Below are positions 452 to 61,564 of a stretch of 64,000 bases of DNA, one piece after another (position 1 is the first letter of the stretch; each line of letters opens with the position of its first letter). The DNA is from Antedon mediterranea (taxonomy: Eukaryota > Animalia > Echinodermata), in contig NC_092674.1 of NCBI RefSeq assembly GCF_964355755.1, positions 7,936,001-8,000,000 on the forward strand, in the 5' to 3' direction. The notes under the pieces are model-generated. The model had not been told where the DNA came from and made no database searches. It worked only from the letters and a program-made list of their open reading frames with translations. Position numbers and translations under genes: made by a program.

Positions 452-2733
452 CTTGACAAGTATCACCAGTGTATCCATCCAAACAGTCTGACCCGGATGA
501 ACATCCTGTGTGTTTATCACAAACACTATCGTCACAGTGACATTCTTGGCGACAATCAGCTCCATAGTATCCAGCCCCACACACTATAAAACGTAGTTAA
601 ATATTATTCACAGATAATATTATGTTTACAGTTTTCACATCTTATTCTATCATTATTTCTTATCTTACTTGAGTGAACATGTAATAATCATTACAATAAT
701 ATTATAGTATAATCATATTATAGCAATAACTCTAATACAGTATAAATTATAAACTTTTTAAATCTATATATAATTTTACATAAGGGCACATTTTAGTAAC
801 AATAACCTGTACTACAATCATTTCCTCCAAAACCATTGATGCATGTACAACCAACTGGATCAGGTGGACAAAAAAGTATTCCAGTACAATTCGCACCCTC
901 GCTGCTACACACAGAGTCGCATTTACGACCCCAGTTGTTATTTCCACAACCTATCGCAAATAAAATACATACAATAACGTTCAATGTATGTTTATTTGTT
1001 AATTACACGTCCACGTATTTTAGCAGTTTATATTTAGGCCTACCGTTTTCACAAGAATCACCGTTGAATCCTGCTGGGCAAATACAAACACCCGTCTTAT
1101 CGTCACACACTCCGCCATTATAACAAACGGGACAGTTCATTTCACAGTCTGGAGGGTTCCATTTTGGTGAGGGACAAGCTAAGAAAGCATTTAAAATAAA
1201 TATAACTATACGATTATATTGGTTTGTATATTTTTGCTTAGTACAAACAGAATACTGCGACTAATGTTTAAGTTTTAAGTTTGTACATCATGTTTTCCAA
1301 ACTAGCATTTCAAATCTCAAAACTACATTATAAACTAATTTTAAACTAAAATAAACGTATTTCATTTCAAAATGTACTTTTCTTTTGTACCATTTTTCAA
1401 TAATATTCCTATAAATCTTTGTCAATGCTGTTTTTTTTTTTAACGTAGAATTATTATTATATCAACCGACCACATCAAATAATTCTCATTTGTATATAAG
1501 GAACTATTTTATCTGACGTTTTTCCATCTGTTTAATTAATATGTAATAAATGTTATAACTTACTTCTAACAATAAGTCTCATGATAACATGGTTACCATC
1601 AGGGCTATCACCTGTATAACATTCATATACGCCATCATCTTTTCTTCGTATGTTTCCAATCACAGCAGACGTTTTACCCGTCATATTGTGTATTTCCTTT
1701 CCATAATTATGTCTCCAGCGTAAATCGTCAAGATCACCACCTTTACTGAGATTGATAGTGACAGACTCCCCTATACCGACCGTAGTCGTTCTGTGCTCCA
1801 TTTCAATATTGGCTGTAAAAATTGAATCAATAGGTCTTACAAACTAAACGTAATTATGTAATGGGCTGATGTGTTTTTCTAGTTAACAATCACCTCTATA
1901 AAAAAAATTAATTGATAATTTAAGGACGGGATTGCATGGCATTACTCACCAGAAGCAGATTTCAATATTATTGCTGTATGTGTGACTACTCCATTTTTCT
2001 TTGCTTCAAATGAAAAGACACCAGTCTGAGTTTGTAAGTTATTAACACCTAGAAAGGTGAAATATTGGTGTGTTCGGAATCTAATTATGCTGTCGGTGGA
2101 AAATATTTTACCGTCTGGCATATCTTTTGTTTGCTGCCTAGAGCTTGGGCCTTTAAAATTACCAGTATCAGCCCAAGTCACGTTATCGTTTCCATTAATA
2201 TTCTTGTACAATATTCCAACAGATAAATCTCTGATGTCTTTGTCTTTTTGAAGTGCGAATCCTTGAAACCAACCATTACTATTCGCGTCAACTAGAGGTG
2301 TTCCAGAAAGTGCTGTTATATCTAATGGCTCTTTAAAGAATAAAAAAAATAGTAATTTTTAAATGAAGTTCGAACTGGTGAATAATAGCTAGTACTGTAG
2401 ACCATTTTCGGGAATACGGTATACATGTAGAATAAATAGATTATAGTAATATAACAATGTGACACAATTAGCAGTGGCTGTTTGCAGATTAGAGGTAACC
2501 TTATGATTTGTTATTTCTATTGTTACAGCAATTTGCCGATAGTTATTGCTTCCACACACAAAAAATTAGCCATGTATATTTCAATACAAACTAATGAATA
2601 AAAATAGGAACCCCCGATTTAAAAAAAAAATTGTAAACAAATCAGTATAAAACATACCTGATAATCCTGAATTAAACGTAAAATATAGAGTCACAAGCAG
2701 GTAGAACAAGTGTGAAAAACGTATAGCTAACAT
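452..2733 (-). CDS. Gene A: Tie-like receptor, 5' part (signal peptide, Ig1, Ig2, EGF exons); continues beyond window start
   Basis: GT-AG exons: 2658-2733 (MLAIRFSHLFYLLVTLYFTFNSGLS), 1950-2330 (EPLDITALSGTPLV..., Ig1), 1564-1812 (Ig2, ...DDGVYECY...MRLIVR), 1044-1178 (CPSPKWNPPDC...CYNGGVCDDKTGVCICPAGF), 807-950 (...LFCPPDPVGCTC), 452-583. All in frame. The RLIVR-C..KW..C / CICP.GF / FC.PDP.GC.C pattern matches the Tie1/Tie2 Ig2-EGF region as I recall it. Confidence 0.88.
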
Positions 2734-5700: not shown

Positions 5701-5935
5701 ATCGCAAATCTGCAGCTTCTCTTATTTTCTATTTTACATATTTTATTTAATGCAGTTTATTGGTTAATCGTTTTGGATAGGAGCACTTAAGAATGGTCGT
5801 TTATTTTGCAAACTACCAGTTTTGTTGATAAAATTGTATTATATTTACATTTTGTTGATTGTTTTTAGACTATGCTTAATTATAGCTATAGATTTACTTC
5901 TGTACTGTAACTACATTTTTTATTTCTTCAGTACT

Positions 5936-6014
5936 TAGGCTAGGCTAGGCTAGGCTAGGCTAGGCTAGGCTAGGCTAGGCTAGGCTAGGCTAGGCTAGGT
6001 ACTACTACTACTAC
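5936..6014. repeat. (TAGGC)n followed by (TAC)n microsatellite
   Basis: About 12 perfect TAGGC units, then about 5 TAC units, just 3' of the gene B stop. Confidence 0.95.
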
Positions 6015-6041
6015 TAACTCAATAGGTTTATTTTTGATTTC

Positions 6042-9000
6042 TCAATCAACTGTGTTAACATAAACATGTTCCGGTGCAGGCTTGGTGTTTGCATAAACAT
6101 GTTCACCAGATGAGGATTCAACAGCAGGTTTAATTTCTTCATACTCACTTTCTTCATATTTCTTAGATAGACTTTGATAATTTGTATCTATTGTGCATAC
6201 ATTTTGTTGAACATCAAATTTAGCAGCGTGTTTTCCTGAATCTATACGTCTAAATCTAAAAGAGACCAAATGTATTTATATCAATCAATTAATAAAAAAA
6301 AATTAATAAAAAATAAATATTTCATCAATATCAAACAAGGCCAACAGCCATTAAGTCGCGTGCTACAATGCATAGTGATACCGGACCGACAGACAAACAG
6401 ACCGACAGACAGACAGACCGACAGACAGACGGACCGACCGACCGACATAGTGAACTATACTGACCGAAATTACTGAACATGTTTAAAAATGTTGAAATGT
6501 TTAAAAACATTTATATTTTTTTAATTTACACGTGCGTAGCCTGTCACTTTTGACGTGCTCGTATAACGTAATTTCGAGTTGAAAAGTAAGTCAAGAAAAC
6601 AGAAATCGGGCAAGAAGAGTGCGCAATAACATTTAACGTGCAGTGCGCGCGCAAAAATCTGCGCACTCATGGCAATTTTGTAAACGCTTAAAATTGCCTG
6701 AAACGTACTCTTATTTCATCGAAAATAAATTTTGAAAATTTTAAACGCGCTTACGCATGCGTTACATGCGCTACGCACGTAATTGTATTGCCATATGATG
6801 ATTTATGCCCTGAAATTTATGAGTACCAAATTTTATTTAATTGTGATTCATGGTTGTTAAGATATGATTACAAACGTGATTTCGTTAAATCGTGCGTAGA
6901 CCACGTAATTTTTTATTGCGTAATTTTCGATGAAATAAGAGTACGTTTCAGTCAATTTTAAGCGTTTACAAAATTGCCATGAGTGCGCAGATTTTTGCGC
7001 GCGCACTGCGCGTTAATTGTTATTGCGCACTCTTTTTGCCCGATTTCTGTTTTCTTGACTTACTTTTCAACTCGAAATTACGTTATACGAGCTCGTCAAA
7101 AGTGACAGGCTACGCACGTGTAAATTAAAAAATATAACTGTTTTTAAACATTTCAACATTTTTAAACATGTTCAGTCATTTCAGTCAGTTGGTAGGTTGG
7201 TCGGTCGGTCGGTAAACACTAAGCACGCGACTGCAGCCATCTATATGGCCTTGTTCTTTTAAGTTTTAAGTTTTGTGATATGGATAAAATATCAAGCATA
7301 GTAACAGTTTCAGTGTGTGATACTATATGGATGAAATATCAAGCATAGTAACAGTTTCAGTGTGTGATACTATATGGATGAAATATCAAGCATAGTAACA
7401 GTTTCAGTGTGTGATACTATATGGATGAAATATCAAGCATAGTAACAGTTTCAGTGTGTGATACTATATGGATGAAATATCAAGCATAGTAACAGTTTCA
7501 GTGTGTGATACTATATGGATGAAATATCAAGCATAGTAACAGTTTCAGTGTGTGATACTATATGGATGAAATATCAAGCATAGTAACAGTTTCAGTGTGT
7601 GATACTATATGGATGAAATATCAAGCATAGTAACAGTTTCAGTGTGTGATACTATATGGATGAAATATCAAGCATAGTAACAGTTTCAGTGTGTGATACT
7701 ATATGGATGAAATATCAAGCATAGTAACAGTTTCAGTGTGTGATACTATATGGATGAAATATCAAGCATAGTAACAGTTTCAGTGTGTGATACTATACCG
7801 TTTATACATCATCACGATGACAGCAACTGTGATAACTGCCGCGATTAGTGAGCCAATTACAACACCTATGATGTAACCTGGAAAATATAAAAGGACAAAT
7901 TTTCTTGTTTTATTTACATTACTGGTACTGAATCTAATAAGAATTCCAAACAATGAACTATGTATAATACACACCTTGTTTCTTTTGGTCACAATTTGGT
8001 CCAAAAATGAATTTCTTTGTGTCAGATGTCCCACTAACGTGTAAAAATGATGCCAATACTGTGAATGTATATTCTGTACATGACTCAATTCCTTCACCAA
8101 ACAAAACTTGAGTTTCTGTAGTATTTCTTTGCTGAAATATTCCACCACCTGACAGTTCATAATGGTAGGTCACCTGATAGTTTGGAATGTCACATGTAGA
8201 AGCGTTCCATTTCATCAGTATATGTGTTCCATTTGTGAATGGATTGCTTTTTATCGATGGCTCTATTATTGTAACATAGAATATTAAACAGATTTTTAAT
8301 AAATGAATTATACTAGACATTAAGAATTGTTTCAATTGGCCGATAAAATGTTTTACCCATTTTTTTATATATAAACTTTACACTAAATGACCAACTAGGC
8401 CTAAATGTTAGTAAAATACACTCACACATTTAATGATTTAAGCATACCTGATGGTGCTGTTTGTATCAATATGTCCTCTCCCCAATTACCAACAATCTCC
8501 ATATTATTAACAACTCGAGCGTTTACGACATAAGCAGTACAACTTAATAATCCTGGTAGTTGAACTTCTAATTGAGAACTGTTTGTTGTGTTGACTACAT
8601 TTAGTATACTTCCATCGATGTCTGAGTACTGCACTTGATATCGAAGGATATAGTTACACTGGATTCGATCATAATCACTAGAAACAGACTGAAATACAGA
8701 AAAAAGACAAATACCGTTATTTGAATCTGATACTGGTAACCAATTTCTGTTTGATAATATGTTATATTGTAAGGACAAACAATTAGAGAATACTTTACAA
8801 CTTTACTTGCTTGAACTTACTTAGTTCATTTACAAATACCAATAACGTAATGTATACGGTATTTACATTCACTACTTTAATTAGACTTTCTAGTAGGCCT
8901 CCTAGTTCCGTAATAATTAATTTGTTGATTGTGGAACTTACGATAATGAAGAACAAACAAGAACAATAAAAACATATCTAGTGTACCTTTAAATTCACTA

Positions 9001-12000
9001 TCATCTGATTATCTCCAATGGTTTTTAACTCCATCTCAGGTTCTTCTAAAGGCTCTATTTCATAATATGTAACACAGCGGATTAGAACAGACATACAAAA
9101 TACAACGTGGTGTGCTATGGTAGATATCATAATAATTTTTCTAACAACAAAGAATAAATAAAGGAATATCTCATATAATCCAACAAAAAGTTAGCATACT
9201 GTAAAACAAGTAAAAATTAATAATCTGTGAATGATAAAATCCTTAAAACAAATGTTGGCAATCTTTTAATTCTAGATCTATAGATACTAGATTTATAAAA
9301 TCAGTTGACGCGTTGCTGATTACATGGCTTGGCAGTTTGTTAACTGATTATCTGTAATGTTAGATCTTGCCTGAACATATTGTGTTGGTTGATCCAAGTG
9401 TACTTCTTGGTCCATCTACCTCAATACCACCAACCATCCTCGAAAACTGAGAGTAGAATTGAACTTGCGTATTTGGGATAAGTTTGTCAATGACAATACA
9501 TAAATCATTATATGATTCAGTTATTGATATAAATGAATCCATCTCCGATGATTTATACGAAAGTTTCCGTTTTGTAATTGTTCCTGTTCCATAGTCTTCA
9601 CCAAGAATCCAAGTGACGTCAAATGTTATACTTGCTGCTGTCTGATTTACAACAGTTGGTGGTTTAAAGTTGTATGGTAATGCTATTTATGAAAATAGAA
9701 AACACACTGAACTATTAAAACAGAATACATGTAGGCCTATGTGTTGTTCTGCCGTATAAACTTTACTAAATCATCTGCATATCTAATTAGATGGTTTTAC
9801 TCGCTTTATAGTCGGATGTATAGAGACTATAATGACTTCAGAGATATAGATAATATATGGGCAAGGCAATTGAGAATAATTCATAGAGAAACATACGATA
9901 AATGTTCATGTGGAGCAATTTGTCGATAATCAAGTGTAAATATGATTATGACTATCAATCTGTTTGTGTGTGCATCATAATTTTTGTGCAAATTAATTAA
10001 TTATTCTCTTTATGTGTATATAATCAGGTTTTAAATGTTTTTTTTATATTTACATAATTGACTATTTTGTAGTTTTTGTAGGGCTGTGGATACTCGCATG
10101 TTTTTGCGCATTGTTGCTTTCGCAACCTCTATTTTTGACCGATTGTGTTGATAAAATAAATGGAATGAATAAATAAAACTGTAAAACATGGAAACATTTG
10201 ATGATCCTAGTTGCCTATTGTGAATTTTCTAAATGGAAATCAAATTAACTGCATCTTCAGTTATACAATGAGGTACTACAGAGAAAAGGCAAGATGTATG
10301 TATGTGTATGTATTTAATTAATTAACTTTCATGACAAAATATGTAACTAATAATCTAATCTCTCTCTCTTTTCCGATAATTCTTCAGGCTACTTTGAATA
10401 GCTGAAAGTATACGACATATATAGTTTAATGTCGTGTAGTTACCTATGCTGCAGTTTGGTCCAGCCCAAGCTTCATGGCATCCATTATCGCAACCTCCAT
10501 CTCGATTACAATCTGCCGAAGCTTTGCAGTGACACAGGAAATTACACAAAGCACCAAAGAATCCGGATGAACATGACGGAGGCTCTTTAGAAACCAAGAA
10601 TAATATCATTAGCAATTTCAATGTACTGTACAGTATAAATGATTGTGTAAAAGTCAAAGAAAACTTAATTGAGTAGAAACTCAGTTACCAAAGTAAATGC
10701 ATAGAATTGACCAAAAGGTTTAATTTTCCTCCATTGTCCCATTATATTGTTCGGATTGATTTTTTGGTGAATTTGTGAATTTATTCGGGGTGAATCGCCA
10801 TTCAAATGGATCAGTGGTACATTTTAAACCGCCCAGTGATATAAAGAAAAGTATCTATCTTATTTTTAATAATATACTACCTAAACACGTGTCTCCTGTG
10901 TAACCAGACGAACATTTTGAACCGGAAATGCATCCTGTTGTTTTATTACAAACGCCATTGTCACAGTTACATTTTTGACGACAATCTGCTCCATAGTATC
11001 CAGCATCGCACACTGGAAAACATGAAACAATTGTAGTTTAAAATACTTACATCTTATCTAATATTAAAAACTGTAAAAATCAATCTTATACAGAAAATAA
11101 TAAAACAAAACAACTATACGATTAGTAATAATAATAATACTGAGATATGGTACAAATAGTACGAACAGTAATCACGGTGATAGATGTGAAAGCAGTGAAG
11201 CGATATCAATAGTATCAGCCGATTCTGCTACTGTCAAGAGGTATCTATCTGTAAAACTATGTACAGCATTTCTGCAGACAGCAACGTATATAACTTGCTA
11301 TAGTTGTATAGATAGATACCTCTTACAGTAGCAGAATCGGGTCCTAGTATATGAATTAGCCTAAAGGCAAAATTCGACATATCCCTCCAAACACCTATCG
11401 AAAACCAGTATACTAATCAAGTTTAGTTAGAAAAGTATTTAGGTTAAACGTAAATATTGTAAATAATGTGTATTCATAGTTATGTTACGTCATCATTGGA
11501 TGGCGGTCAATAATGTTAAACTTTATAGTAGTGACCTGTAGGGCTTAAGTTTGAGTTTTCGTCTGACATCAATAGTTGAAAAAATAGTTTGGCATAATGG
11601 CAAAGATAATTAAGAAATGCTTTTTTGCATAATTTATCATAATTTTGGAAATTTATTTATTTTATTAAAACATATTACCTCAACAACATATTTTTTGAGT
11701 ATTAATAGCACTAATAACACTAAAATATAATAATCATTATTTTCATCATAGGCACAAAACATATAAAATGTTCTGACCTGTAGTACAGTCTCTTCCTCCA
11801 AAACCTTTCATACATGTACATCCAACTGGATCAGGTGGACAGAAAAAAACCCCAACGCAATTTCCACCAGTAGAACAGTTACTGTTGCATTCATGGCCAA
11901 AGTTGTTAATTCTACATCCTTAAAAAATACATTAAAAGTATCTCATAAAAGAAACATCTTTACTACATCATAAAAGTATTATTATCTTATCCTTTGTATA

Positions 12001-15000
12001 GTATTGTATGTTTTTAACTGTTGTTATTTTTATTGTAATTTCAACCTTGGAAGGCAAATTTCATTTACAGTGTATTTGACAATAAATTTGAACTTGAACT
12101 TGAACTTGAACTTGAAGTAATTTGACAAATAATTAAAATAAAAACAAATTGTATCAAAAATAAAATTCGGAATTATTTACGGTCATTAATTTTGTTATAC
12201 ACTATCCCTTCACTTTGGAAACATATGTAAGCTAAAAAATGAAAGCAATACTGGATATGTAATTTAGACTTTACTTTTGACTGTTCTGACTTTACGAAAA
12301 AGAAAACATTTGATGATGCGCAAAAACACTAACGAAAGTACAAAATACCAAACTATATTATTTTTGTTGGTTTTCGTGGTGTATTAATTATTTTGATAAA
12401 TTTAGATAAAACAAAAAAGTTGACAGAAATCGAATGAAAAACATATTGCTGCGGAAACACGAATTGTTAAGTTTTTATGTTCTATATCAAACCATTTGGA
12501 ATCGTTTTGTTTGTGGGTGTTCATCATCATCTACATTTATTTTTATTTCAATGGTTTTGATATTTTGCATTTTCGTTTGTGTTTGGGAGATTTGATACCT
12601 ATTTGCTACTTTTTTAATTTTAAAACTGTGGTTTAGAAGTAAAGGTCATGTCTGCCTTAACAATAATTCGCATGGGATGAAAAAGCGCACTCTTCGCCCC
12701 GGCTCCTGAAAATCATGTTAAGAATTGTCAAGAAAAAATTCAGAACTATTTACGGCCATGATTTTGTTATACACGGAGTATTCCTTACTTTATAAGTGAA
12801 AGCAATAGTGGATATGGGAACTTTGTGGTGATCTAGGGTGCGCATCAGAGAGTGACAATGTGCATGAGAGAGAGGATGAAGTCTGTCAATCAGTAGGCAG
12901 TGTTGGAATAATAATAAAACTACAGCTGACTGACGGACTTTTATGAATAATGTGTTGAAAATAGATGATGATGTTTAATGTTTATTGCTTAATAACAATA
13001 ATAAATGTTATGTTTTAATAATTTGTTTACCTCCGCCAAGGATGTATATGTAGTCGATCGCTTGTATTTGTATCTGTCTGTTTGTTTGTTTGCAAGATTA
13101 CTCAAAAAGTGCATATTACAAGATTTTTACGAAAATGAAAATACAGATAAATATGTGATCAAGGACCAGGGTCCCAATTCTGGACCACTTTTTAGTATTA
13201 TTTTCAGACCTGCCAGATAGGAGACAATTCTCAAAAGCCGGCGAGCAGTCTTAAAGTAACAAGTAACCTGAACTTGCATTTTCTCGAGAACTACATGTCA
13301 AAAAAAAACTTCATTTTTGTACAGAAGCAAGAGTTATAATTTGTGATTTGTAATTTTAAAACATAATTTGATTTAATGTACAGTTTTATATGATTAGTTT
13401 TAAAAACCCTATTTCTTTTCAAATGTACCCGTTTATTTTTGGCGTTGCTGTTCTATTGTTAATCAACTGAAACTATTGTTAGTTGAAAGGCTGGTTACGT
13501 AACCATTACACCAAATCACACACAGCTCGCATTTCCGGTGAAATCTTATGTAAGAGAATTTTATAGTAGGCGGAGGTATGCACTCTCGGAGTATCGTTCT
13601 AATTTTAAGATTATTTATGTGATTTCCAGTTTTACAAAAATTGCCTTTAAATCCTGCTAATTATATTATAATACAATATAAATTAAGCTATTACCAGTTT
13701 TACAAGAAGCGCCTTTAAATCCTGCTGGACAAATACAGACGCCCGTCTTATCGTCACATACTCCACCATTATAACATATGGGACAGTCCATTTCACAATC
13801 TGGAGGATTACATTTTGGTGATGGACAAGCTATTAAATAAAAATAATAAAAATAATAATAATTTGTCCGAAAATGTAAACAGTCTCTCTGAAAGACAAAT
13901 TATAAGGTCAATGTGTTTTCATTTATTAGAACCAATTAAATAATGTATACTAATTTACTTTTAATTTAAAATATTTACATATTAGTATTATGTTCCAAGT
14001 GTGTATCCTAATCAGATATCAAACTACCTTGTTGGTAAATATTACTAATTGACGATGAAAATGCTTTTACAAAGATTTACCTCTAACAATGAGTCTCATG
14101 ATACCATGGTTACCATCCAGGCTATCACCTGTATAACATTCATATACCCCATCATCTTTCATTCGTATGTTTTTAATCACAGCAGAAGTATTACCTCTCA
14201 GATTGTGTATTTCCTCACCATAATTATGTCTCCAACGTAAATCTTCAAGATCACCACCTTTACTGAGATTGATAGTGACATACTCTCCGATACCGACTGT
14301 TATCGTTCTATACTCCATTTCAATAGTGGCTGTAAAATAATTATATTGGTAAACAGATAATAGTAATAGCTATTAAACAAAATATTAATGTTTTAAAGAG
14401 TATGAATAAAATTAGATATTATTTATTCATTATCGTCGTCCTCAAATTGAGAATAACATCATGACCTTACTCACCAAAAGAGGATGTCAAGACAATTGCT
14501 GAATTTGTGACTACTCCATTTTTCTTTGCTTCAAAAGAAAATACACCAACTCTTTCACTGTGAGGTAAGTCAGAAACACCTAGAAACGTGTGATCATCGT
14601 GCACTCGGTATCTAATTGTGCAACTTGTGGGAAATATTTTATTGCTTGGCATATTTGTTGTTCTTTCATTACCAGTATTGCCATCCGTATACGGCCCAGT
14701 ATCATCCCAAGTCACGTCTTCCCCTTCCATATTCTTGTATAATATTCCTACTGATAAATCTCGAATGTCTTTGTCGTCGTAAAGAGCGTATCCTCGAAAC
14801 CAACTACCATTATTGGCAACCAGTGGTGTTTCAGAATATGTTGTTATATCTAATGGATCTTTAAAAATAAAACATCATTTTTATGAGGAGAAAAAAAATC
14901 GGTAAATCGCTCGTAACTTTTACAATTTATAGTCTTCAATGACCGGCAACTAAGTACATACCTGAGGAGAATCCGGAATAAAACCTTAAAGAGAGAGCTA

Positions 15001-28279: not shown

Positions 28280-28318
<39 letters not shown>

Positions 28319-45266: not shown

Positions 45267-48200
45267 GATGACAAACTGCTGTAGAAAGAATACGCTACAT
45301 TTTCCTTTACTAATATATTAATATATTCTAATAACAAGTAGTAGAGAATATTTAAATTTATACCCACGTGCAATGAACAGTGATCGATGTATTGGTAGAA
45401 GACGTAGCACGTCCTTCCATTATCGTCATAATGAATTTAACAAATGCATCAATTTCAGGAACAGGTTTACTTTCTGGCCATTGGTTAACCTCATACAGAA
45501 TAATTTGCTGTACATTGTTATTCTACAAACACAAAACAAGGAATTATTAGTTTGAATTTTACTTACTGTTATTTGTTGTTCTTTGTTCAAATTGCTGTTT
45601 TCGCGATAACCATTTTATTTAAACGTTTTCTGTTTTTTTCCCTCCTGTCTTAGGAATTATGTAAACAATTGTTCTACTGCAATTACTCCATTAATTACAT
45701 CGTTTACTGCAATAGGAATAATCTTAGTTGGTTTCAGTGCAGAGATGTAGGTATCTATTATAATGTAATCTTCAAAAGAATCTTGCTTACATTTGTCTGT
45801 AAAATGTAAAAATATAGATACTGCTGTAACTCATGCATTACAATAATTTTGACATGGTACTTCAACAAAATATAACTAGAAAAAATGTAGTAACCTTTCC
45901 TAGATTTAATTTTCTCTCAGTCATATATTCGTTCTGAAAGTTTGACTTAGCAGTCACGGTTAATTCACCAAATGGTTGTTTTTGGTTGATCTTTTTCGGG
46001 AGGTACATGGCACTCGTTAGGTCTTCCATCTAATGTAGTTGTACAATGACGTCAGATTTAAAATCAAACACCAAACGCCAAAAATCGATCGTGGTATCCG
46101 ATAATGGTGTCCGAGTAACAACAAAAGCACGGCGACCCTTGTGACGCTAGGGTATAAATAAAAGATAACACCGGAAAATATTTGTGTTAAAATAAGTATT
46201 TAAAAAAGAGTATTTCTTCTATAATTGTCTTGCATGTGAATATTACTATCTTTACAAATTGCTTTTGAGATCTTTTTTCATTTATTACGTTCTCATATTA
46301 ATTGAGAAACAACATGTTTTTAGGTTCAGTTTGATTTCAAATAGCGCTAGCTTATGCCCCTCGCTTTCCTTTGAATGAGACGTTCACGTCCTCATACCTC
46401 AATGAGCGCAGCATTTACGTAATCTGCACCACTGCCAACATCCGGATTTAGTTGAAAACATCTTTTAGTCACTGTGATAAATTAAATAATATTAAGAAGC
46501 TTAATTAATTGATCTACTAATAATCGGGCTTATATAGTCGAGGTTCTAATCCTCATAAAAATCGTGATCATATTTAATAATCTTTGATGAACACATGCAA
46601 TTCAAAATGGCCATAAAAAAACCGGCTGAAAATTACTACATTACACCATTGAACCGTTCTTAATTGTGACGTTATGTTCTTGCTGTATAATAATAACCAC
46701 ATTATATTTAAAAACTTTTTTTATCAATAATAGTCAACGTATAGTAATAATTGGTCAGTTGTTTGCCCTACTTTTACGTAATTTGTACATACCGAGAATT
46801 CTCGGGTACATTATCATCAACATTGTTAATTACACTGATGTATTAAGTATGTAACTTACGGAACAAAACATTATGAAATGTGTCCTGGCAACTGATATCT
46901 TGTCGTCTAGTTTGTGACGCAAGATCTTCACCAGGATGTGGAAGCAAATTACGCAACGTCTGCGAATAAATGCATTGTTTAATACAAAATGTTTATCCGA
47001 ATCGTATATTCGTCATCGATGTCACAACCAACATTGCTACTATTAGTCATAGCCATTTCCTTTTTTTTTTTGCTTTTTATTTGTGTGCTTAAAACGCAGG
47101 CGAAAGAAATCCAATTTACTATTTTGTCGTTAAATATGTTCTTCTTTTTTTAAATTTTCATAACATAACGTGTTAGGCAATGTATTGCTCCCCCTTTTGT
47201 ATGAAATTCATTAAATAAGACTCATTAGGTAATTTAAGAATTGGCAGTCAGTTTTATGTGTGTTTAAAACTCGAGAGAAAGAAACGTATTATTTCATTGG
47301 GAAATATTTTATATTTTTTTTTCTTTTCTATGTATTTTATCATTTTTTAATAACTTTATGAATTCAATTTTCCTGTTTTCGTTTATGCTTTATTAAATAA
47401 GACTAATTAGTTAAACAAGACAGTCAGACATTAATTCTTTGTAATATAGAGAGATTCGTTCTGGTGTTGATTCTGAGAGGATAATGGGTAATTAATTTAA
47501 AAATTAGAACAAATCATGCTTTACCTCAAATTCTTTCTTTAATTGATGCTTCGTTACATAGCCATGCAGTTCGGATAACTCAATAGGTTTATAGTCTTCA
47601 TTTTTAGATTCTGTGACATCATAAACAAGGTCCGGCTCAGGTTCAGGGTCAGCGTATACGGGTTCAGTAGAAGAAGCAGCAACTTTTGATTTAATATTAG
47701 TATATTCAATTTTATTTTCAAATTTTGTGACGTCATAAACATGTTCAGGTTCCGGCTCTAAATCAGAATCTGGCTGTGTGTATACGGCCTCAGCACGGTT
47801 CACATAGGCATGTTCAGGCTCTTTCTCGGGTTTTGTGTATACATACATGGCAGAAGATTTAGTGGCAGCAGTAGACTGAATACTTTCATATTCTCTTTCT
47901 TTTTCAGATACATTTTGATATTCCGTATCTACAGTGCTTAGGCCTATATTCTGTTGACTAGTTGAAGATTTACCAACGTTGCCTTTGGAAAACAAGTGTC
48001 TAAATCTGAAATGAACAAATCATAATGTTTAAAAGAATGTATGTGTACGTCATCATCATTTTGATATTCTCTGTAATGGTTTTTTTTTAATTTTGTTAAT
48101 GCAGATATTTGTAATATTTACAATTTAGTATGATATTATTTTTGTAATACTGTATTTATTATCTGAAATATTTTTTTAAGAATATTTCTGTAAAAAGTAT

Positions 48201-51200
48201 TATAATACTTACCGTTTAAATATTACCAAAATGATTGCTACTGCGGCAACTATGGAAATTAGTGAGCCAATTACAACTCTTATTACGGTACCTAGAAAAT
48301 TATTTAATGCTTAATATGTTCATAAAGTAGTCATTTGAGGAGGGGGGGGTAGCAAAACAGTACAAAGGAAAATGTAAGAAATTAAGGGAAAAAAGAGAAG
48401 TAATATGATTAAAGAAATATATATATTTGAAGACAAATATTACTGATTATTTGTAATGTATTTAATTATGATGTGAAGGAATAAAGTGGTGGTTTACGCC
48501 ACAAAGGAGAGAAAAAAACGTAGTCATTAGGCATAAGTTATAAAAAAAAACAATGGCTTTAATAGAAAAAAATATTTATTTTTTTATATTAAAATGTTGT
48601 TTACCTATATAATCCATTCAAAGTTCAATATTTTTCTTCGTAGGACTAAGATTTTCGATTTTTATAGTTACTGAATTCTATTCACAAAGCACAAACAGTA
48701 AGGAACTAACCTTGCTTCTTTTGATCACAATCTGTACCAAAGATAATGGTCATTACGTCAGATGTCCCTCTTACGTTTAAATAAGACGCTAAAACTGTGA
48801 ATGTATATTCTATACACGAATCAATGCCTTCGTCAAAAACAACTTCAGTTTCTGTTGTAGTTCCTTGCTGAAATATTCCACCTGATAGTTCATAATGGTA
48901 GGTCACCTGATAGTCTGGAATGTCACATGTAGAAGCGTTCCACTTCATCAGTAAATGTGTTCCATTTGCAAATGAATTGCTTTGTATCGATGGCTCTATT
49001 ATTTGAAAAAAGAATAAATATACTATATTAAAAATAATTACTGTGATTATTAGGACTATCCTATGAGTAAATCTTTAGATTGAATACAATATAGTTAATA
49101 ATAGGAATAAGCATACCTGAGGGCGATGTTTGTACCGTTATGTCCTCTCCCCAATTACCAGCAATCTCTAAGTTATTAACAACTCGAGCGTTTACGACAT
49201 AATCTGTACAGCTTGATAATCCTGATAGTTGAACTTCTAATTGAGAACTGCTTGTTGTGTTGACTACACTTAGTATATTTCCATCTATGTCCGAGTACTT
49301 CACTTGATATCGAAGGATATAGTTACACTGAATTCGTTCATAATCACTAGAAACAGGCTGAATTATATAAAATAATACGTCAGAAAGAATGAGAATGAGA
49401 ATAAATACTTTTTCAGACATAGGCCAATAGAAATTTAGCTTAATCCTGTTAGCGGATAAAACAAGTTTACGAAAATTCCATTTACGTAAGTGAATGATTT
49501 GTGGAATTATCCTTGTCTACAGCAGCTCTCCGTAAAAAATGTAGGCCTATACAACACGTAAGTCAATTATAATTATATACAATTTTCAAACCTACTACTG
49601 TAGTTCAGGGGAATGGGTTTGTTTCCCTTTACTGGGATTGGAGTAAGAAACCGGCATCTATCAACGGAAAAACAGGAAACAGGATTGATATACTATTATT
49701 TACACCAAGCAAAACGTGTGAACAAAAAAAAATACTTTAAAACCTCTAAACACAATTTGACCTGGTTTTCTTCAACAGATTTCAGTTCTATCTCAGGTTC
49801 TTCCAAAGGTTCTATAACATAAAGAATGAAATTGCTGAGCAAACAGAAATCATGACGACATGCTTTATTAAATCGCTTCTGTATAAATATAGTTTAAAAT
49901 GTATTCTCAAAATGCACATTATAAAAATGTAAAAGTAGTCCAATATGTTTCAATTTTATAACTGACCTTCACAGATTGTGTTAGTTGTTCCAAGTGCACT
50001 TCTTGGTCCATCTACCTCAATACCACCAACCATCCTCGAAAATTGAGAGTAAAATTGGTATTGTGTATTTGGGATGAGATTATTGATAACAAATAATACA
50101 TCGTTATCTGGTTTAGCCATGGATATAAATGAATCCATTTGAGATGATTTGTACTCAAGCTTCCGTTTTGTGATTGTGCCTGTTCCATAGTCTTCACCAG
50201 GAATCCAAGTGACGTCAAAAGTTAAGGTAGTTGCTGTCTGATTTATATCACGTTGCGATTCAGTGTGGTATGGTAAAGCTATTTAATAAAACACATATCT
50301 GTGTATATTTTAAACAAAAACGGTGCTTTTTAATTTAACTTATATTAATAAAACAATATAAACATGTAAGCATGGAAGGTGATTTTTTTTTTCGTTCACC
50401 TTTCTTCACCCTCTCCATTTCTCCTTTCTCCCAACTTTAAATTCAGAAAAGTATCTCAAAGCTTAGGGTCTAATTATTCCTCATAATATAAATAAATGTG
50501 TGTCGTTACCTATGCTGCAATTTGGTTCAGCCCAAGCCTCGTGACATCCATTAGTACAACTTCCATCTCGATTACACTCTTCAGAGTCTTTGCAGTGACA
50601 TGGGAAGTTACACAAGACACCGAAGTATCCGGATTGACATGACACAGGCTCTTTACAAAAAAAAATATGATTATTATGTTTGTCATTAAAACTATTTAAC
50701 TCCAAAACTAATACAAGCTTCTGCAATTGTCTAAATCTAAAGAACATATGCTATAGGTTCTTTGCTCAATCTTATCACATTCGGTACAGCTCATTAGGAA
50801 GTATACTCTACAGTTAGAGGGAAAATGGCACTGTGGTCATGTTAACAATATAGATTATCTGATCAAATTCCTAGAAAGTAGGAAACATTTTGCCATTTTT
50901 TCCTGACTGTTCATGGTTCTCACACAAAAATAAGACTGTACAGTATTTTCAAGGTTGTTTTTCTTTCTACATGGTAAGTTAACAATATTTACAAAGGAAA
51001 CATAAAAATGATAATAAAAGAAAATGGTATCAAATTGTCAAATATCATTACCTAGACACCTGTCACCGGTGTAGCCAAACAAACATGTTGACCCAGAAGT
51101 ACATCCTGTATCTTGGGTACAACTGATGATATCACAGTTACATTTTTCCCGACAACCAGCTCCATAGTACCCATCCTCACAAACTTAAAAACATAAAATG

Positions 51201-51589
51201 AAGAACTTGTGTGCGATAACTCATGTCATGTCTCATGTTTCACATAGAAAATATAGGCCTATTAGTAACAATATACACGACCAATTATTAAATAAATATT
51301 AATTAGGCCTACATTATAAAACATACTATTCAACAAACCATTACCATAACTAACGAAAATTGTTAAAGGATTTTAGTATAATTGCTTTTCTGATCTTTGC
51401 TGATACATATGATATAGACCTAATTAAAATCTAACCTGTATCACAATCACTTCCTCCAAAACCATTGATGCATGCACAACCAACTGGATCAGGTGGACAT
51501 AAGAGAAATCCTCTGCAATTTCCAGTAGAAGAACATACAACTTTGCATTCACGACCCCAGTTGTTATTTCCACAGCCTCTTAGTAAACA

Positions 51590-53462
51590 TCATATTATAT
51601 TAAGTGTATATTATGTGTTTTTACAAATTTAAAAGGCAACATATTGTTTTACCATTATTTTGATAATGGTAAAACAATATTATGTTTTAAAAAAACATGA
51701 AAAAATCAATTTAAAAAAATAATAATAAAACATACCGCCGGTTTTCTATATATAAATTTACGTAGGGGCAAAATTCGGTAAATCGCGCGTTATTTCTAGA
51801 ATGTTTACTCGATGGTATATAAAGTTGGTTCGTACTTTCGGTACTGATTTTAACCGCCTGATGTAAACCTGTTTACTAATTAAATTGAGTTCAATAATTA
51901 GTTATTGACGATTAAAACGAATTTAGGTTCAATGATTTTCCCCAAATAGGGGTGTTTTTCGATCGCGGTATTGAATTGAAAAATACCCGCAGACGATAAT
52001 ACGAGGATGCTTCGCATTTTCCTATCTCCTCCTACGATAATTGTTTTTAATGGCTGAAAACCGGTTGAACAGCTCGAGTACAGCATCATAATGTTGAAGA
52101 CAGGCCGATTTTCTTTAAAAAATACTATTTTGATAGATTTAATATACGTTTATACAAATGTATTGATTTGCGATGAATGGAACATTCCAATCTCTGTTCC
52201 ACAATTGTCTATTCCCTCAGGCGTCGTAAAGGCCAGTACTGTATACTCATAACAGAAATTCGATCAATTTTTTTTTTTCAATCTGTGCTGCAGAGGTTGG
52301 ATATAATTTTTTTTTAAACGGATAAAGAGCTAGCGTTTTCACTCGCCGTATATTATGTATAAATCTTTATTATTGCAGTTAAACCACCCACATCATCACC
52401 CTTCCCTCACTGGCATGAGTAGCGTTGTAAAACCAGTAGAGGATAGGCCTACGGTACATCACATGCCCTCTTAATAAGTATGAAACAATTGAAAACCATT
52501 AGGCCTACTAATTAAGTTGAGTTAGATAATTTAATATTTATTGACGATTAAATCGAATTTATGATTTTCCCCGAATAGAGGTGGTTTTCACAAATTGTTT
52601 TACATTATATAAAAATATACACGTCGTAGTGATGTATCGTTACATGTACTGTACTATTTCAATCGACTTGGACGGTGATAGTTTCAACAAATTATTACAT
52701 CGCAATGTTTTACTGTGTTTAGTGGTATATTATTTGTAAAACATGAAAACAATAATAATAATAACTGGTACTTGACAATTTAGAAATTTCCAAATTAAAA
52801 AGTGGGTTTTGAGGAGAGATTTGAAGACACTGGTGGAAGTAGCCTGACGGATTTCAATAGGCAACGCATTCCATAGAGAAACGGATGCCGAAGAAAACTT
52901 AGTGGAAAGATGAAATATATGGGCAAGAAGAGACTCAGATCTAGATCTCAGAGACCGCTTAGGAACATAAGGTTGAATAAGTTCAATTAATATTTCGTTA
53001 CTAAATGGATAAAGAATATATTTAAAAATGGTTCCTCTTTGCACCCATCCTCTTCCCCATCCCTCAACCCTAATGTTACATACAAAACACAAATTAAGTT
53101 TGTTTAAATTTGACTTAAACAATTGGTCTCATTTTGTGACAAGTTTCTCTTTCGGAAGTAATTCCCATGGTGCTAATTTTAGTTGAGTACATAAATCACA
53201 GTGTCTATTTATTCGTTCCTGTAGGCTGTAAACGACATGTATTATTGTCCTACGGTACGTACATTTGAAATCGCCAGTTTTTTAACGCTGAAATTATTAT
53301 GTATTCAAGAACCATCTGTGGGCACGACCTAGATGGTACGCTCGCTTCGCTCGCGTACCATCTAGTAATCACAAATTTAAGCAAGCATTTTTTATTTATT
53401 TTATATGTTTTGATATTAACTCGTTTTGCTTTCTTATTATGAAATAATCGGTACTTTTCTTC
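51590..53462. mobile_element. ~1.9-kb composite insertion in E intron 4 (Helitron/HINE-like end hairpin plus nested LINE fragment)
   Basis: Absent in D (~37848). Hairpin CTAGATGGTACGC...GCGTACCATCTAG at ~53329-53365. Minus-strand ~52795-52985 reads YVPKRSLRS...LWNALPIEIRQATSTSVFKSLLKTHF (CR1/L2 ORF2 C-terminus). Confidence 0.6.
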
Positions 53463-56400
53463 AATCATTTTCGTATCAGTATATTACTTACACATTCTTA
53501 TTTTTTTAATAATCAAAATTATTCCGCTTGCGTTCGAAACTTCTCCAGTCGACTAATTAACATAAATAACATGCTATGTTTGATATTAATTTGTCTTTAC
53601 CATTTTGACAAGAATTGCCTTGAAATCCTGCTGGACAAATACAGATACCCGCCTTATCGTCACATACTCCGGAATTAAAACATACGGGACAGTCCATTTC
53701 ACAATCTGGAGGATTCCATTTTGCCGAAGGACAAGCTATTAAGATACAATATTGAAAACAATTTAAACAACTTGTAATAAATTGAGCGAGTTTCCTAAGC
53801 CTACCAGAAATACCACGTGTTGGCCTATAAGGATAAACAGAGGCGCCTCATAAGGTGGAACCACCTAAGCTTCAAGACGTCTCATCGTTGTACATAATAA
53901 AACAATAAAGAAAGTCACATAATATTCTATAATCATCGCACGCAATGAATTCTTTTTATTTATGTGAAATTATTTATGAGACCCAATCAAATATGATGCA
54001 ACATTTATAGTCCTGCATTTTTTTCCTGCTGTACACAGCTATTATTTCAACTAAATGCTATAATAGTTCTTATGGTTGACCAGATAAACAATGGTTAAAA
54101 AAGTACCTCTAAATAAGTAGACCTATAACTGTTAAAACCTACCTCTAACAATAAGTCTCATAATACCATGGTTACCATCAGGGCTATCACCTGTATAACA
54201 TTAATATACCCCATCATCTTTTATTCGTATGTTTTCAATCACAGCAGACGTATTACCCCTCAGATTGTGTATTTCTTCACCGTAATTATGTCTCCAACGT
54301 AAATCGTCAATATCACCACCTTTACTGAGATTGATAGTGACAGACTCTCCAATACCGACCGTTATTGTTTTGTACTCCATTACAATATTTGCTGTAAAAT
54401 AATAATTGGATAATGAAAAAAATCTATACTTTTATTTACGTAGAATTAGTTTAACGTAGTTCTATGAACAATCCTACAACAAAATACCAAAGATAATTTT
54501 ACAATTAAAGATATTGTGAGGAAATCTTGCCCATACTCACCAGAAGTGGATGTCAATACAATTGCTGAATTTGTTACTACTCCAGTCTTATTTGCTTCAA
54601 ATGAAAATACACCAACTCTATCAGCGTGAGTTTGAACGTTCGTAACACCTAGAAATGTGTGGTCTGAATATATCCGATATGTAATACTGCTACTTGTGTG
54701 AAATATTTTACCGTCTGGCATATCTATCGTCTGAGCTCTAGTGATAGCCCCACTGGCACCAGTATCATCCTAAGTCACGTTAGTTTCCCCGTCGATATTC
54801 TTGTATAATATTCCAACTGATAAATTTCTAATATCTTTGTCGTCTTGAAGGGCGTATCCTCGAAACCAACTATCACTAGCTGTCGGCCGTGGTGTGTTGG
54901 ACAAAAGTGTAATGTCTAATGGACCTTAAAATAATAATAGCAATCAGTCATTTTGCTGCAATTAAATTAGCTTTATAACATACCTTTGTATCTACATTTG
55001 ACTCAAGCTACAGTCACTACAGTGGAAATTCAATGGAGAGATGTAAGTATGGCCATTTTTTAGGCTGGCAGGGATTTAGACAAGTGGTATTGTAGTCTCC
55101 AGATACAATGTAATTTCAATCTGTATACAGGATAGAGGCGTAAATGTTAAAGCCATTAAGCCTACTGTAGGCCTATGTAGTTGTAGTTATTTGTGCCGAA
55201 ATAGGCATAAAACTAAATGACTTTTTTACAAACATCTTGATCAGGAATAGGTTTGATGAATTACTTCAAATAAGTAGGCTACAGTAGAGTACAAATAATG
55301 TAATCTAGCTTTCAGTCGATAAATGTAAATTTTTCTTGAGTATGAACGTATCATATTCGGTGCATGAATAAATATATTGATCAATAATAAAGATTCGGCA
55401 AGATTTTACTTCACATATATACATACGGACTGACAAGCAAAACTAGAAATATACTAGGACTTTACTATTCATTTTTTCCACTATACTTAATTCTAACATT
55501 CTCATGTAAATGGTAGGTTATTTAGGTCAGTAATTGGAAAGTTAGAAACATCATGGAGAAAACTAATAATCCTCTATTAGGTAAACTCTCGCACATTACA
55601 TTTGGTATTAACAGGGAGTTAAGTCAGAAATTCGTTTGTAAGAGTACAATTTTAAACATTATATTAGAGCCACTTATTGCAACTAATTTAAAAAGTAAGC
55701 AGATTAATCTTAAAGCAGCATACCTGATAAAACAAATCCACACGTCAAACTGAGAGTTATAACCAGACGAAACAAAGTTGGAAAGCGTTTGTCCAACATC
55801 TTCAGTAAGGTTGAAACATATTCACTTGTACAGACCTAACCAATGCTAAAATAACTATACCTGTATACAGTATGGTATTCTATTATTTGCGTAACAATTG
55901 GATAACCCAACCACGTAGAATGTATAAGGAAATAAAACATATTCCAAAATACATGTTTCCCGGGATGTATATAAAATAGATCCATTGTCAACGTTGTTAC
56001 AGGGTTCGTATATATGCTTCAATTGATTTCGACAACAATTACTAGAAAAATCAACGCCCACACCAAACTAATATATGCAGCCCAAACAAATTCTTTCGGC
56101 TGCGGCTAAATATTCCATTGTAACTAATTGATGTATGTCGCTTCATAAATCTTTTACATCATAAAGGAATCGAATTGATAACAAACCAACAACTCGTAAC
56201 ACAAATATTTTACACTACACAAAATCAGTGTGTTTTGTGCTTGTAAATACAGATTGCAGTAGAATAAAAATAATAATTAATAGTTCAATGACAATTTTGT
56301 TTTTAAGTACAGCATTTTGAATTACTTATTTTACTCTTGACATCCGGAGGTTGCTGGGACACCATTTGTCTGGGTGGTTGAGGGAATTGCCCTGGTTCTT

Positions 56401-57969: not shown

Positions 57970-58690
57970 ATGTTTTCCGTAAACTATTTGTCAAATATTC
58001 TTTATCTGGTTTTAGCAATTCTCAGTTTAGGTTGTCCAACAGAGTCTTCAGGTATGTTAAACGATTAAAATACGATACAGAGTTGGAGTAAACTATAGCT
58101 TGCGAATTTGTTTAGCCAGTTTTATCAGACACAAAGAGTGACAATGGAAATAAAGTGAACTAACAATGTAGCCTACTTTCAGAATGGCAATTTTAATCAA
58201 ATGCATTTCTTGTTCCTCTCTTTTCAGTTTTAAGTCTCTTTTAGGTTTAACTAAAGTTTTTTGAAAGTTCATAATTGAAAGTGAATCACTTCCAATCCAT
58301 TTGCAGATCCATTAGATATAACATTATTTTCTACGACACCACTAACGACGCCTAGTGGTAGTTGGTTTGCTGGATACATACTCCGAGGCGACAAAGACAT
58401 TCGAGATTTATCAGTTGGAATAATGTACAAGAAAATCGAAGAGAAAGGTAACGTGACTTGGAATGATACTGGGCATACGGGTGGTTATACTATTTATACA
58501 GATTTTAAAAATAAGCCTATGCCAAACAATAAAATATTTACTCCCACCAAGTGAAATTATATACAGGGTACATTATAGTCTAACAGCACTCTGAGTTACA
58601 AAATTACAGCCTCGAATTTAAAGAGTTGGCGTTTTTTTATTTGAAACAAAGAAAAATGGAGTAGTCATGTGCACAAATTCAGCAATTGTC
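57970..58690 (+). pseudogene. Gene F: truncated pseudogene (signal exon plus disrupted Ig1 exon)
   Basis: Exon 57970-58051 reads MFSVNYLSNILYLVLAILSLGCPTESS. The exon from 58307 reads DPLDITLFSTTPL...DIRDLSVGIMYK, has a frameshift near 58550 and TGA/TAA stops, and ends at ...NSAIV in an A-run with no donor. Confidence 0.82.
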
Positions 58691-59581: not shown

Positions 59582-60893
59582 ATGTTTTTCGTTAAATATA
59601 TGTCAAATGTGTGTCATCTGGTTATAGCAATTATCTCTTTTGGTTGTCCATTAGAATCTACAGGTAAGCTAAACGGTTAAAATAATATCACAAGGCTTAG
59701 ATAGCCTATTATAGTGTTTCATTACTTATTTTATCATTGATTTATACAAAGATATATGCCAGTAGTGTTTACAGAAAAAAGATTGTTAATATTCTTTAAT
59801 GTCACAAATTAACTTAAAAGCCTAAAAGAACTACGTGATGCTCTTAATAATATAGCAGAAGGAAGTAGACATTCAAACCAAATCATAGATTATGCTCTTT
59901 CAGTACCGTGGACGATAATCATAAGCCGACTCAGAATAGGCCTAAATTATTAATCATATATAATCTCAAATAAATATTTCCTAAAATTTAAGATCCATTG
60001 GATGTAACATTATTTTCGGGTAGCCCATTGTCGCAAAGGAGCGCCTGGTTTCGAGGATACGCACTTCAAAACGACAGTGACATCAGAGATCTATCAGTTG
60101 GAATATTATACAAGATTATTCCTGGTAGAAATAACCTGACTTGGAAAGATACCGAGTATTCGGGTAATCATACTGGTAATATGAAAGTTAAAGATATGCC
60201 AGACGGAAATGTGTTCTACACAAGCAGCAAAATTATATACCGATTACACGCCAATTTGACTTTTCTTGGTGTTTATAATAACGTCGAACGACCTCAGATG
60301 ATTGGTGTATTTTCATTTCAAGCAAAGAAGGATGCAATAGTCGCCAACTCGGCAATTGTCTTGACATCCGCTTCTGGTGAGTAACTAATTATCAGCTATT
60401 TATAATAATAATAATATATCTATTTACTCCAAAATAAATCTATACAAATAATTCAAATGTATTTATTTGTCATCGCATACGTACACAGTGATATTTCGAA
60501 ACAATTTCAAGCGTTTTATTAGTTTAACGATTAGTTTACACTTGCTTTAATGAGAATAGACTACATGATATTTTGAAACATTTTCACAGATATCAGCACT
60601 CAATTGCAATTTTTAGTATTTAGGCTATTATTGGTATTTCACAGCCAATATTATAATAGAGTACAGAACGACAACGGTCGGTATTGGAGAGTCTGTCACT
60701 ATCAATCTCAGTAAAGGTGGTGATCTTAACAACTTACGTTGGCGACATAATTACGGTGAGGAAATACACAATCTGAGGGGTAATACGTCTGCTGTGATTG
60801 AAAACATACGAAGAAAAGATGATGGCGTATATGAATGTTATACAGGTGGTAGTCCAGATGATCACCATGGTATCATTAGACTTATTGTAAGAG
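59582..60893 (+). CDS. Gene G: Tie-like receptor, 5' part (signal peptide, Ig1, Ig2); presumably continues beyond window end
   Basis: Open GT-AG exons: 59582-59663 (MFFVKYMSNVCHLVIAIISFGCPLEST), 59993-60376 (Ig1), 60645-60893 (Ig2, ...DDGVYECY...RLIVR). No EGF exon was seen before 64000. Confidence 0.82.

Positions 60894-61561: not shown

Positions 61562-61564
<3 letters not shown>

Follow-up and report, generated by a model that had tools for sequence, protein, structure and literature searches.

A 64,000-nucleotide stretch of the genome of the crinoid Antedon mediterranea (contig NC_092674.1, positions 7,936,001 to 8,000,000 of the forward strand; hereafter the window) carries a tandem cluster of seven paralogous receptor loci, designated A to G, together with remnants of further copies. 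Their extracellular head resembles that of the angiopoietin receptor Tie2, and the cytoplasmic part is either a tyrosine-rich tail (genes B and C) or such a tail followed by one degenerate protein tyrosine phosphatase (PTP) domain (genes D and E). The family comprises receptors that cross the membrane once, carry this head and have evolved by tandem birth and death; most likely it arose by duplication of a receptor-type PTP (RPTP) with two phosphatase domains, D1 and D2. The cluster is real. It is apparently an undescribed form of paired-receptor cluster and does not belong among the Tie kinases. As to whether it serves as a paired recognition system, in immunity or in self-recognition, the sequence leaves us evenly divided.

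Probable phosphatase pedigree and Tie-like head

Searches with the distal Ig domain (IgA) gave 16 matches, all of them crinoid, two of which have two PTP domains: P0004, encoded on the same 31.9-Mb contig as the window, and P0012 of Anneissia. The D1 domains of both retain intact KNRY, WPD and HCSAGAGRTG motifs. P0004 matched the tandem domain of PTPRS with an E value of 1e-131, and the nearest solved relatives of the parent RPTP are the LAR-type and PTPalpha/epsilon adhesion and guidance receptors. The exons of D and E match Pfam Y_phosphatase, and no catalytic D1 (KNRY, WPD, HCSAGxGR) was found within the window. In a quick tree of 64 PTP domains, the single PTP of D and E grouped in the D2 clade (support 100), beside the D2 of P0004 and a second D2-only Antedon receptor, P0017. 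Its identity to the D2 of P0004 is 48-74% over exons P3-P5; D2 is absent from B and C. The six exons of this domain in D (29092-31686, minus strand) lack KNRY, read WPE for WPD, carry a P-loop of HCTDGVSR and have lost the first glutamine of the Q-loop. Since the KNRY motif, the WPD aspartate and this glutamine are lost, the D2 of D and E is predicted to be inactive. The original prediction, made from the sequence of the window alone, had described D and E as carrying a tyrosine tail plus a degenerate PTP; this was confirmed, and the PTP can be specified more exactly as the D2 of a tandem RPTP.

The junctions of these domains bear apparent traces of their loss. The tail exon of D (32233-32707, minus strand) encodes tyrosine repeats and a loose pair resembling an immunoreceptor tyrosine-based activation motif (ITAM). 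The exon ends with the wedge motif found ahead of D1 in P0004; from there D is spliced directly into D2. This juxtamembrane motif is coding in D and E and vestigial past the stop in B, where the DNA 3' of the stop codon (5859-6041, minus strand) reads KPIEL, the wedge motif preceding the PTP in D and P0004. A 37-nt segment 120 bases past it (5895-5859) resembles the start of the 3' untranslated region (UTR) of D (84%, E 3e-6). On the basis of the wedge motif and the UTR match, this region is read as the scar of a PTP-exon deletion.

Ectodomain trees united the window genes and P0004 in one Antedon clade (support 98 with 75 rows; 100/98 with 32 rows hand-picked from the 75), which sits inside a kinase-free crinoid clade of phosphatase-type receptors (98/97). 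Gene A is the window's closest relative of P0004, its own tail lying beyond the window. Forcing the window genes into one clade with seven kinases was rejected by the approximately unbiased (AU) test (p 5e-5), and none of the 30 crinoid matches to the P0004 head has a kinase domain. The original prediction had taken the genes for Tie kinases in which the kinase was replaced; this was not supported, as the family nests among D1+D2 phosphatases. Its statement that a kinase is absent from the window held: tblastn with a Patiria Tie-type kinase gave a best E of 0.74. B, C and D end in stops after the tail or PTP, and the sequence of A and G ends before the transmembrane (TM) segment.

It is therefore highly probable that the window family descends from a D1+D2 RPTP. 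We infer a history from D1+D2 through D2-only to tail-only forms, the exact branching being blurred by conversion between copies. Loss of D1 would have given D and E; B, C and the related Antedon receptor P0015 would then have followed from a further deletion, that of D2, together with a stop placed ahead of the wedge motif, and the juxtamembrane tyrosine motifs of the parent would have multiplied. With tandem-domain RPTPs (LAR/PTPRS/F, PTPRA/E, R2B), D and E have the TM segment, wedge motif and D2 in common. The family differs from them in its Tie-type ectodomain, D and E in the lack of D1, and B and C in the lack of both domains and the presence of an ITAM-like tail. The RefSeq 'RPTP T-like' proteins XP_033097302.1 (Anneissia) and XP_071950701.1 (Antedon) belong in this comparison.

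The kinship of the head with Tie2 was evident in sequence and in structure. The Antedon RefSeq protein P0001 (XP_071950704.1), which corresponds to the 5' part of gene B, matched Tie2 ectodomain chains with an E value of 1e-35 across the second Ig domain (IgB) and EGF1-3. An AlphaFold2 model of the head, built from a 45-sequence alignment, had a mean predicted local distance difference test score of 88. The Foldseek comparison with Tie2 that had been proposed returned Tie2 as the top match. Residues 28-375 of the model superpose on residues 23-342 of Tie2 (2gy5) with a Z score of 32.6 and a root-mean-square deviation of 2.9 over 305 residues (Ig1-Ig2-EGF1-3). For the first FN3 domain the best structural match was FNIIIa of Tie2 (5utk; Z 14.5), which lies near the scores of the other FN3 rows. 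Three FN3 domains and one TM segment are present, as in Tie kinases; the Pfam fn3 matches for FN2 and FN3 are weak. Pfam gave no match at E under 0.1 for the five IgA exons tested, so that the assignment of IgA comes from the structure model, in which it corresponds to Ig1 of Tie2. A profile search with IgA across 1.84 billion representatives returned only five proteins at E up to 1e-10, the named ones being crinoid.

Tie receptors have a third Ig domain between the EGF and FN3 domains. No Ig3 was found in the head: the alignment of the model with Tie2 breaks off at residue 342 and resumes at FNIIIa. At this place B, C, D and E have a 141-nt cysteine-rich exon encoding a fourth EGF between EGF3 and FN1. 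Of the Ig-Ig-EGF-FN3 order that the original prediction equated with Tie, the homology of the head thus stood, and Ig3 has to be replaced by a fourth EGF. In Tie2 the angiopoietin ligand is bound by Ig2. The equivalent of this domain, IgB, is the more conserved Ig of the window family, and the Ig1 equivalent, IgA, is the variable one. In summary, the family has the Ig1-Ig2-EGF1-3 head in common with Tie1, Tie2 (TEK) and sea-urchin SpTie1/2, and a first FN3 closest to FNIIIa. It differs from Tie1 and Tie2 in having a fourth EGF for Ig3, no kinase, an RPTP-derived cytoplasmic part, and multiple copies with pseudogenes.

Tyrosine tails and exchange between copies

The tails of B and C comprise 70-76 residues. 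The tail exon of B (6042-6255, minus strand) encodes the ITAM-like sequence YQSL-x8-YEEI and two YxN motifs, followed by a stop; C has YQSL-x8-YEDI. The pattern D-x2-YxxL-x8-YxxI, with its acidic residue at -3, is common to B, C and P0015, and fits the ITAM consensus. In 20,000 trials with shuffled tails it appeared at frequencies of 0.03-0.12% (B 0.0004, C 0.001, P0015 0.0003). Over a core of 30 codons around the motif, chosen by us, B and C differ by eight synonymous and six non-synonymous changes (non-synonymous divergence, dN, 0.09; synonymous divergence, dS, 0.79; Fisher p 3e-4). Judged from these changes, the ITAM core is under purifying selection. The earlier report of ITAM/tyrosine tails in B and C is thereby borne out. 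A tail-based search matched only P0015 and P0002, and P0015 is the sole annotated model bearing a B/C-type tail. The tails of D and E have a looser ITAM-like pair and 12 tyrosines. P0004 is without an ITAM, but has an EPVYGN-type motif, and the tyrosine repeats of D and E likely grew from a motif of this kind.

Mean identity among 14 Antedon sequences was 59% for IgA, 80% for IgB, 85% for EGF1, 69% for EGF2, 62% for EGF3, 78% for EGF4 and 65% for FN1. The variation in IgA is patchy and includes indels, and IgA is the most variable domain by a small margin only. Synonymous divergence was 0.12-0.32 in IgB versus 0.33-0.89 in IgA. D and E are 99% identical over EGF4 to FN3 and 82-94% identical from the signal exon to EGF2. 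The low synonymous divergence of IgB and this D/E mosaic form the pattern that gene conversion makes. Conversion would have homogenised IgB and the Ig frameworks, and the IgA loops would have diverged; the IgA pattern fits old loops that escaped conversion, with or without selection. All pairwise ectodomain comparisons gave dN/dS values of 0.19-0.63, and the frames remained open over dS of 0.2-0.5. Tandem birth and death, as first proposed, agrees with a cluster that contains pseudogenes and shows mosaic exchange between copies.

Layout of the cluster and its gene models

The window is AT-rich animal DNA with a GC content of about 0.32. Self-comparison and tblastn with window exons confirmed all of the at least seven loci of the original prediction, the collapsed remnant and the orphan exon. 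A to E lie on the minus strand and F and G on the plus strand. Splice sites and phases, placed by hand, follow one consistent scheme across all seven loci. The exons of B measure 79 nt for the signal peptide, 384 for IgA, 249 for IgB, 135/141/132/141 for the EGFs, 312/68+241/288 for the FN3 domains and 79 for the TM segment. Also as predicted, the copies are intact (B and C open), frameshifted (D, by one base) or dead (E and F).

The 5' part of gene A (452-2733) is open over six exons (signal 2733-2658, IgA 2330-1950, IgB 1812-1564, EGF 1178-1044, 950-807 and 583-452, minus strand) and leaves the window at its left edge. Gene B (6042-15040, minus strand) has 13 exons in an 820-aa open frame encoding signal peptide, IgA, IgB, four EGFs, three FN3 domains, TM segment and tyrosine tail. 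Its FN1 exon has a GC donor at 9370-9371, and RefSeq model P0001 has the identical junction. A 47-bp tandem repeat (11 copies, 99% matches; 7278-7797) begins at the donor of B's TM exon. The last intron of B holds an inverted repeat (6429-7213) with arms of about 298 bp that are 94% alike, a foldback or an element like a miniature inverted-repeat transposable element. Next comes the collapsed remnant (about 17409-17713, minus strand), a signal-exon stub fused to a broken FN1 exon (17619-17409). Gene C (20694-27244, minus strand; signal exon 27244-27169) has 13 exons, an 822-aa open frame and the ITAM-like tail. Directly upstream of its IgA exon lies a stub of a duplicated IgA-exon start (25970-26046, ends approximate, minus strand).

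Gene D (29092-40555, minus strand) has 19 exons encoding the common ectodomain, a TM segment, a 158-aa tail with the 12 tyrosines and one D2-type PTP. Its FN2 intron carries a 1545-bp insertion (34149-35693) that is not in E and is skipped by contigs of sequencing runs X1 and X2. An orphan signal-peptide exon follows at 42310-42385 (minus strand). Gene E (44303-55799, minus strand) is a pseudogene twin of D with stops at codons 77, 217 and 1005. An in-frame acceptor is present for its EGF2 exon at 51576, and its EGF1-EGF2 intron is 2022 bp long (51579-53600) versus 130 bp in D, probably owing to an insertion. Locus F (57970-58690, plus strand) has an open signal exon (57970-58051) and a frameshifted IgA exon with stops, and is dead. 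In locus G (59582-60893, plus strand), the signal (59582-59663), IgA (59993-60376) and IgB (60645-60893) exons are all open. No EGF exon was found 3' of its IgB exon in the remaining 3.1 kb of the window (60894-64000); the same intron measures 250-410 bp in A to E. G is a truncated or interrupted gene, or else a short secreted two-Ig form. A dispersed short repeat with GTCG/GACA tetranucleotide runs occurs in several introns (6384-6447, 16354-16416, 22289-22658, 39723-39788 and 40176-40205).

The RefSeq models of the region, P0001, P0014, P0016 and P0022, are truncated or chimeric, which makes database names and counts of the family unreliable. An IgA exon of the window is 100% identical to P0001, and the first 549 residues of B equal this protein save for its last residues, as P0001 terminates in the FN2a intron. 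P0016 joins C to the collapsed remnant by splicing. P0022 includes the exons of D from IgA onward, but starts in the PTP exon of E, and is thus a chimera around the frameshift of D. As a lower bound on copies, there are at least 12 Antedon RefSeq clusters with an IgA domain, ten of them on the contig of the window.

Sequencing reads bore on whether the copies are real. Contigs of X1 showed no differences from the D-specific stretches, and D has a second, near-identical version in the sample that is not E; an assembly artefact was therefore not borne out as far as tested. False haplotype duplication as the origin of D and E was also rejected, since their 5' parts are merely 82-94% identical and D has a second version of its own. 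Contigs of X8, a run that may be RNA, cover exons and introns of D and E with no spliced joint among the matches listed, and are neutral evidence. The window's allele of D has a single additional base in its IgA exon, at 39202, and no other break in the frame; removal of this base gives an open frame of 1173 aa. Contigs of X1 and X4 contain the extra base. A contig of X2 is shorter by exactly one base at 39202 and differs by two linked substitutions within 45 bases; its short side spans only 29 bases there, two below the bridging rule of the tool. Runs X1, X2 and X4 are recorded as one sample, in which D likely has one null and one open allele; the X2 version may instead come from a near-identical unassembled paralogue.

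The wider family and competing explanations

A Tie-type head without a kinase is not confined to this locus: among 81 proteins matching the P0004 head, 35 have a PTP domain, eight a kinase and two an adhesion G-protein-coupled receptor (GPCR) domain. Phosphatase forms with a Tie-type head occur in all five echinoderm classes, in spiders and in a tick. The chelicerate D1+D2 phosphatases that match the head (P0057, P0061 and P0097 in spiders, P0100 in the tick) raise the possibility that this domain combination is older than the deuterostomes or had two origins. The adhesion GPCR fusions to a Tie-type Ig-EGF head are sea-cucumber proteins (P0066, P0072). D2-only pseudophosphatases form three sets: the P0091 cluster (Asterias rubens and A. 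amurensis), the P0067 cluster (Apostichopus) and P0017-P0019 (Antedon). A single clade joining the forms of the two Asterias species and Apostichopus with those of Antedon was rejected (AU p 1e-7), for a group defined after the PTP tree had been seen. D2-only receptors appear, from these trees, to have arisen at least twice in echinoderms, and probably three times.

In sea stars, kinases and phosphatases share nearly the same head. The Patiria pairs, known as are all the sea-star pairs from database gene models alone, have ectodomains 80-83% identical over 800-900 aa: P0092 and P0093 are 83% identical over 827 aa, with near-consecutive accessions on one scaffold, and P0082 and P0081 are 80% identical. 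P0080 and P0084 of Asterias likewise form a kinase/phosphatase pair in the tree. These kinases and D1+D2 phosphatases are candidate paired receptors. Anneissia has an expansion of its own, with its own tyrosine-tailed member, P0032. Together with P0085 (Holothuria) and P0086 (Antedon), P0032 is enzyme-free and adjoins D1+D2 phosphatases in the ectodomain tree; the tails of all three are unlike those of B and C. The Anneissia proteins P0009, P0012 and P0020 have one more FN3 domain, a fourth, ahead of the TM segment; the window genes and P0004 are without it.

Vertebrate KIR/LILR are paired-receptor clusters of the same kind as that proposed here, and to our knowledge almost no immune receptors have been described in crinoids. 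Hydractinia Alr (PMC9546547) and Botryllus FcoR (PMC12582321) resemble the window in being clustered multigene families that undergo birth and death and exchange sequence between copies in mosaic fashion, and in having an Ig ectodomain with a variable N-terminal domain and tyrosine-motif tails. The window differs from Alr, FcoR, KIR and LILR in its scaffold, a Tie head with EGF and FN3 domains, and in that inhibition would come from a phosphatase built into the receptor and not from an immunoreceptor tyrosine-based inhibitory motif (ITIM); an immune role of the window family is putative. It is established that Hydractinia and Botryllus have clusters of ITAM/ITIM receptors and that echinoderm coelomocytes express Tie-like kinases (PMC9546547, PMC12582321, PMC5336234, PMC3342357, PMC12113024, PMC11310086, PMC13409769), the latter including sea-urchin Tie1/2 (PMC3342357, PMC12113024); a Tie-2-like kinase and an RPTP-F-like protein are reported from starfish coelomocytes (PMC13409769). 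Neither Tie-ectodomain phosphatases nor this cluster were described in the literature searched; subscription papers were mostly outside it, and receptors of this sort may already be covered by Byrum et al. 2006, on sea-urchin phosphatases. Nor was an echinoderm allorecognition or paired-receptor locus found in it. The cluster proteins themselves are already in RefSeq under automatic names.

If the cluster is a paired recognition system, its related heads, in which Ig2 is conserved and the Ig1 loops vary, would bind variants of one ligand class, and a ligand at the head would cluster the receptors. A Src-family kinase would then phosphorylate tails of the B/C type, to which SH2 proteins of the Syk and Grb2 types would be recruited (on). 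The intact phosphatase would undo this signalling (off), and receptors of the D type, their enzyme dead, would serve as tyrosine scaffolds or as decoys. The response would most likely take place in a coelomocyte or an epithelial sentinel cell. A broader version of this model is tentative. In it the Tie ectodomain would be the basis of an undescribed paired-receptor system across the echinoderms, one recognition head having been coupled time and again to different outputs: a phosphatase (off), a kinase, an ITAM tail, or a D2-only pseudophosphatase (on or decoy). Crinoid activating immune receptors would have been carved stepwise from an inhibitory phosphatase, and the cluster would be a fast-evolving immune or allorecognition locus.

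Several observations weigh against the recognition model. The immune role of the cluster, its expression, its ligand and its signalling are putative. The RefSeq models of B and C are without the TM and tail exons, so that the full-length models rest only on splice signals and open frames. Among the seven loci, two are dead (E, F), one is null in the window's allele (D) and one is truncated (G). The ectodomains of P0004 and the tailed forms are 64-73% identical, below classic paired receptors. The YxxL/I motifs of B and C also fit loose patterns of the ITIM and of the immunoreceptor tyrosine-based switch motif (ITSM); an activating tail is likely, with the sign of the signal not fixed. The Tie-2-like kinase and RPTP-F-like protein of starfish coelomocytes (PMC13409769) may or may not belong to the window family. 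The hypervariable distal Ig of the original prediction was also weakened: its patchy divergence with indels stood, but the margin over EGF3 is small and positive selection was not robust. With self-written codon models, M2a was preferred over M1a for six IgA exons (twice the log-likelihood difference 21.8, p 2e-5; 0.0015 with gaps masked; 0.02-0.03 with double-base changes), and no signal was found in IgB or FN3 (EGF1-3, p 0.09). Neutral simulations with segment-wise rate variation, however, passed the 5% threshold in 12 of 16 cases and reached 21.6, the level of the observed value, in five of 16, versus one of 16 and none of 16 passing the threshold in the simulations without it. Synonymous divergence in IgA is 1.02 in the variable patches versus 0.40 in the framework, and with rate variation modelled the test gave p 0.09 or 0.29. 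Positive selection in IgA, accepted at first, was therefore withdrawn.

These points leave room for other explanations. The same RPTP-derived receptors might act in non-immune recognition (adhesion, nerve or skeleton patterning, arm regeneration, gamete or chemosensory functions), with tails that are generic SH2 scaffolds. We regard this as rather doubtful. The relation of the parent to LAR-type and PTPalpha/epsilon receptors speaks for it, as do YxN and YxxP motifs as prominent as the ITAM, the absence of robust positive selection, and the fact that the most conserved Ig is IgB, the equivalent of the angiopoietin-binding Ig2. However, a species-specific expansion, in which Antedon and Anneissia each have their own clade, is more what one expects of host-defence and self-recognition loci such as Alr and FcoR (PMC9546547, PMC12582321), and so are numerous pseudogenes and a null allele that segregates. 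It is unlikely that the cluster is an unstable tandem array around one functional RPTP, its truncated copies being drifting by-products kept alike by conversion and having no distinct role. The dead or truncated state of E, F, the remnants and probably G, the null allele of D, the fragmentary or chimeric RefSeq models and the long branch of the D2-only domains would suit such an array, but B and C retain 13-exon open frames at dS 0.2-0.5 with dN/dS under 1. Their ITAM core is under apparent purifying selection and is common to P0015, and conversion from a functional donor cannot explain the conservation of this motif, as P0004 is without it. It is very improbable that the genes descend from a Tie receptor tyrosine kinase whose copies shed the kinase and came to carry tyrosine tails or a degenerate PTP. 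The head is truly Tie-homologous, and since kinase and phosphatase tails are swappable on it in sea stars, a kinase ancestor deeper in time is possible. A kinase loss in recent history is rejected by the AU test, and the kinase-free crinoid matches, the nesting among D1+D2 phosphatases in both trees, the traces that PTP loss left in B (wedge motif and 3' UTR match) and the lack of Ig3 all stand against it.

Should the copies prove to be decaying duplicates or non-immune adhesion receptors, the cluster would be a lineage-specific RPTP expansion of modest interest. As a recognition system descended from a D1+D2 RPTP, it supplies concrete candidate recognition receptors for echinoderms. Within 64 kb it would preserve the steps from an RPTP to an ITAM-bearing receptor, the D1+D2, D2-only and tail-only forms and the scar being visible. 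Kinases and phosphatases paired on near-identical Tie heads in sea stars suggest that this ectodomain served invertebrate deuterostomes as a general module for recognition, a point of relevance to the origin of the vertebrate angiopoietin receptor.

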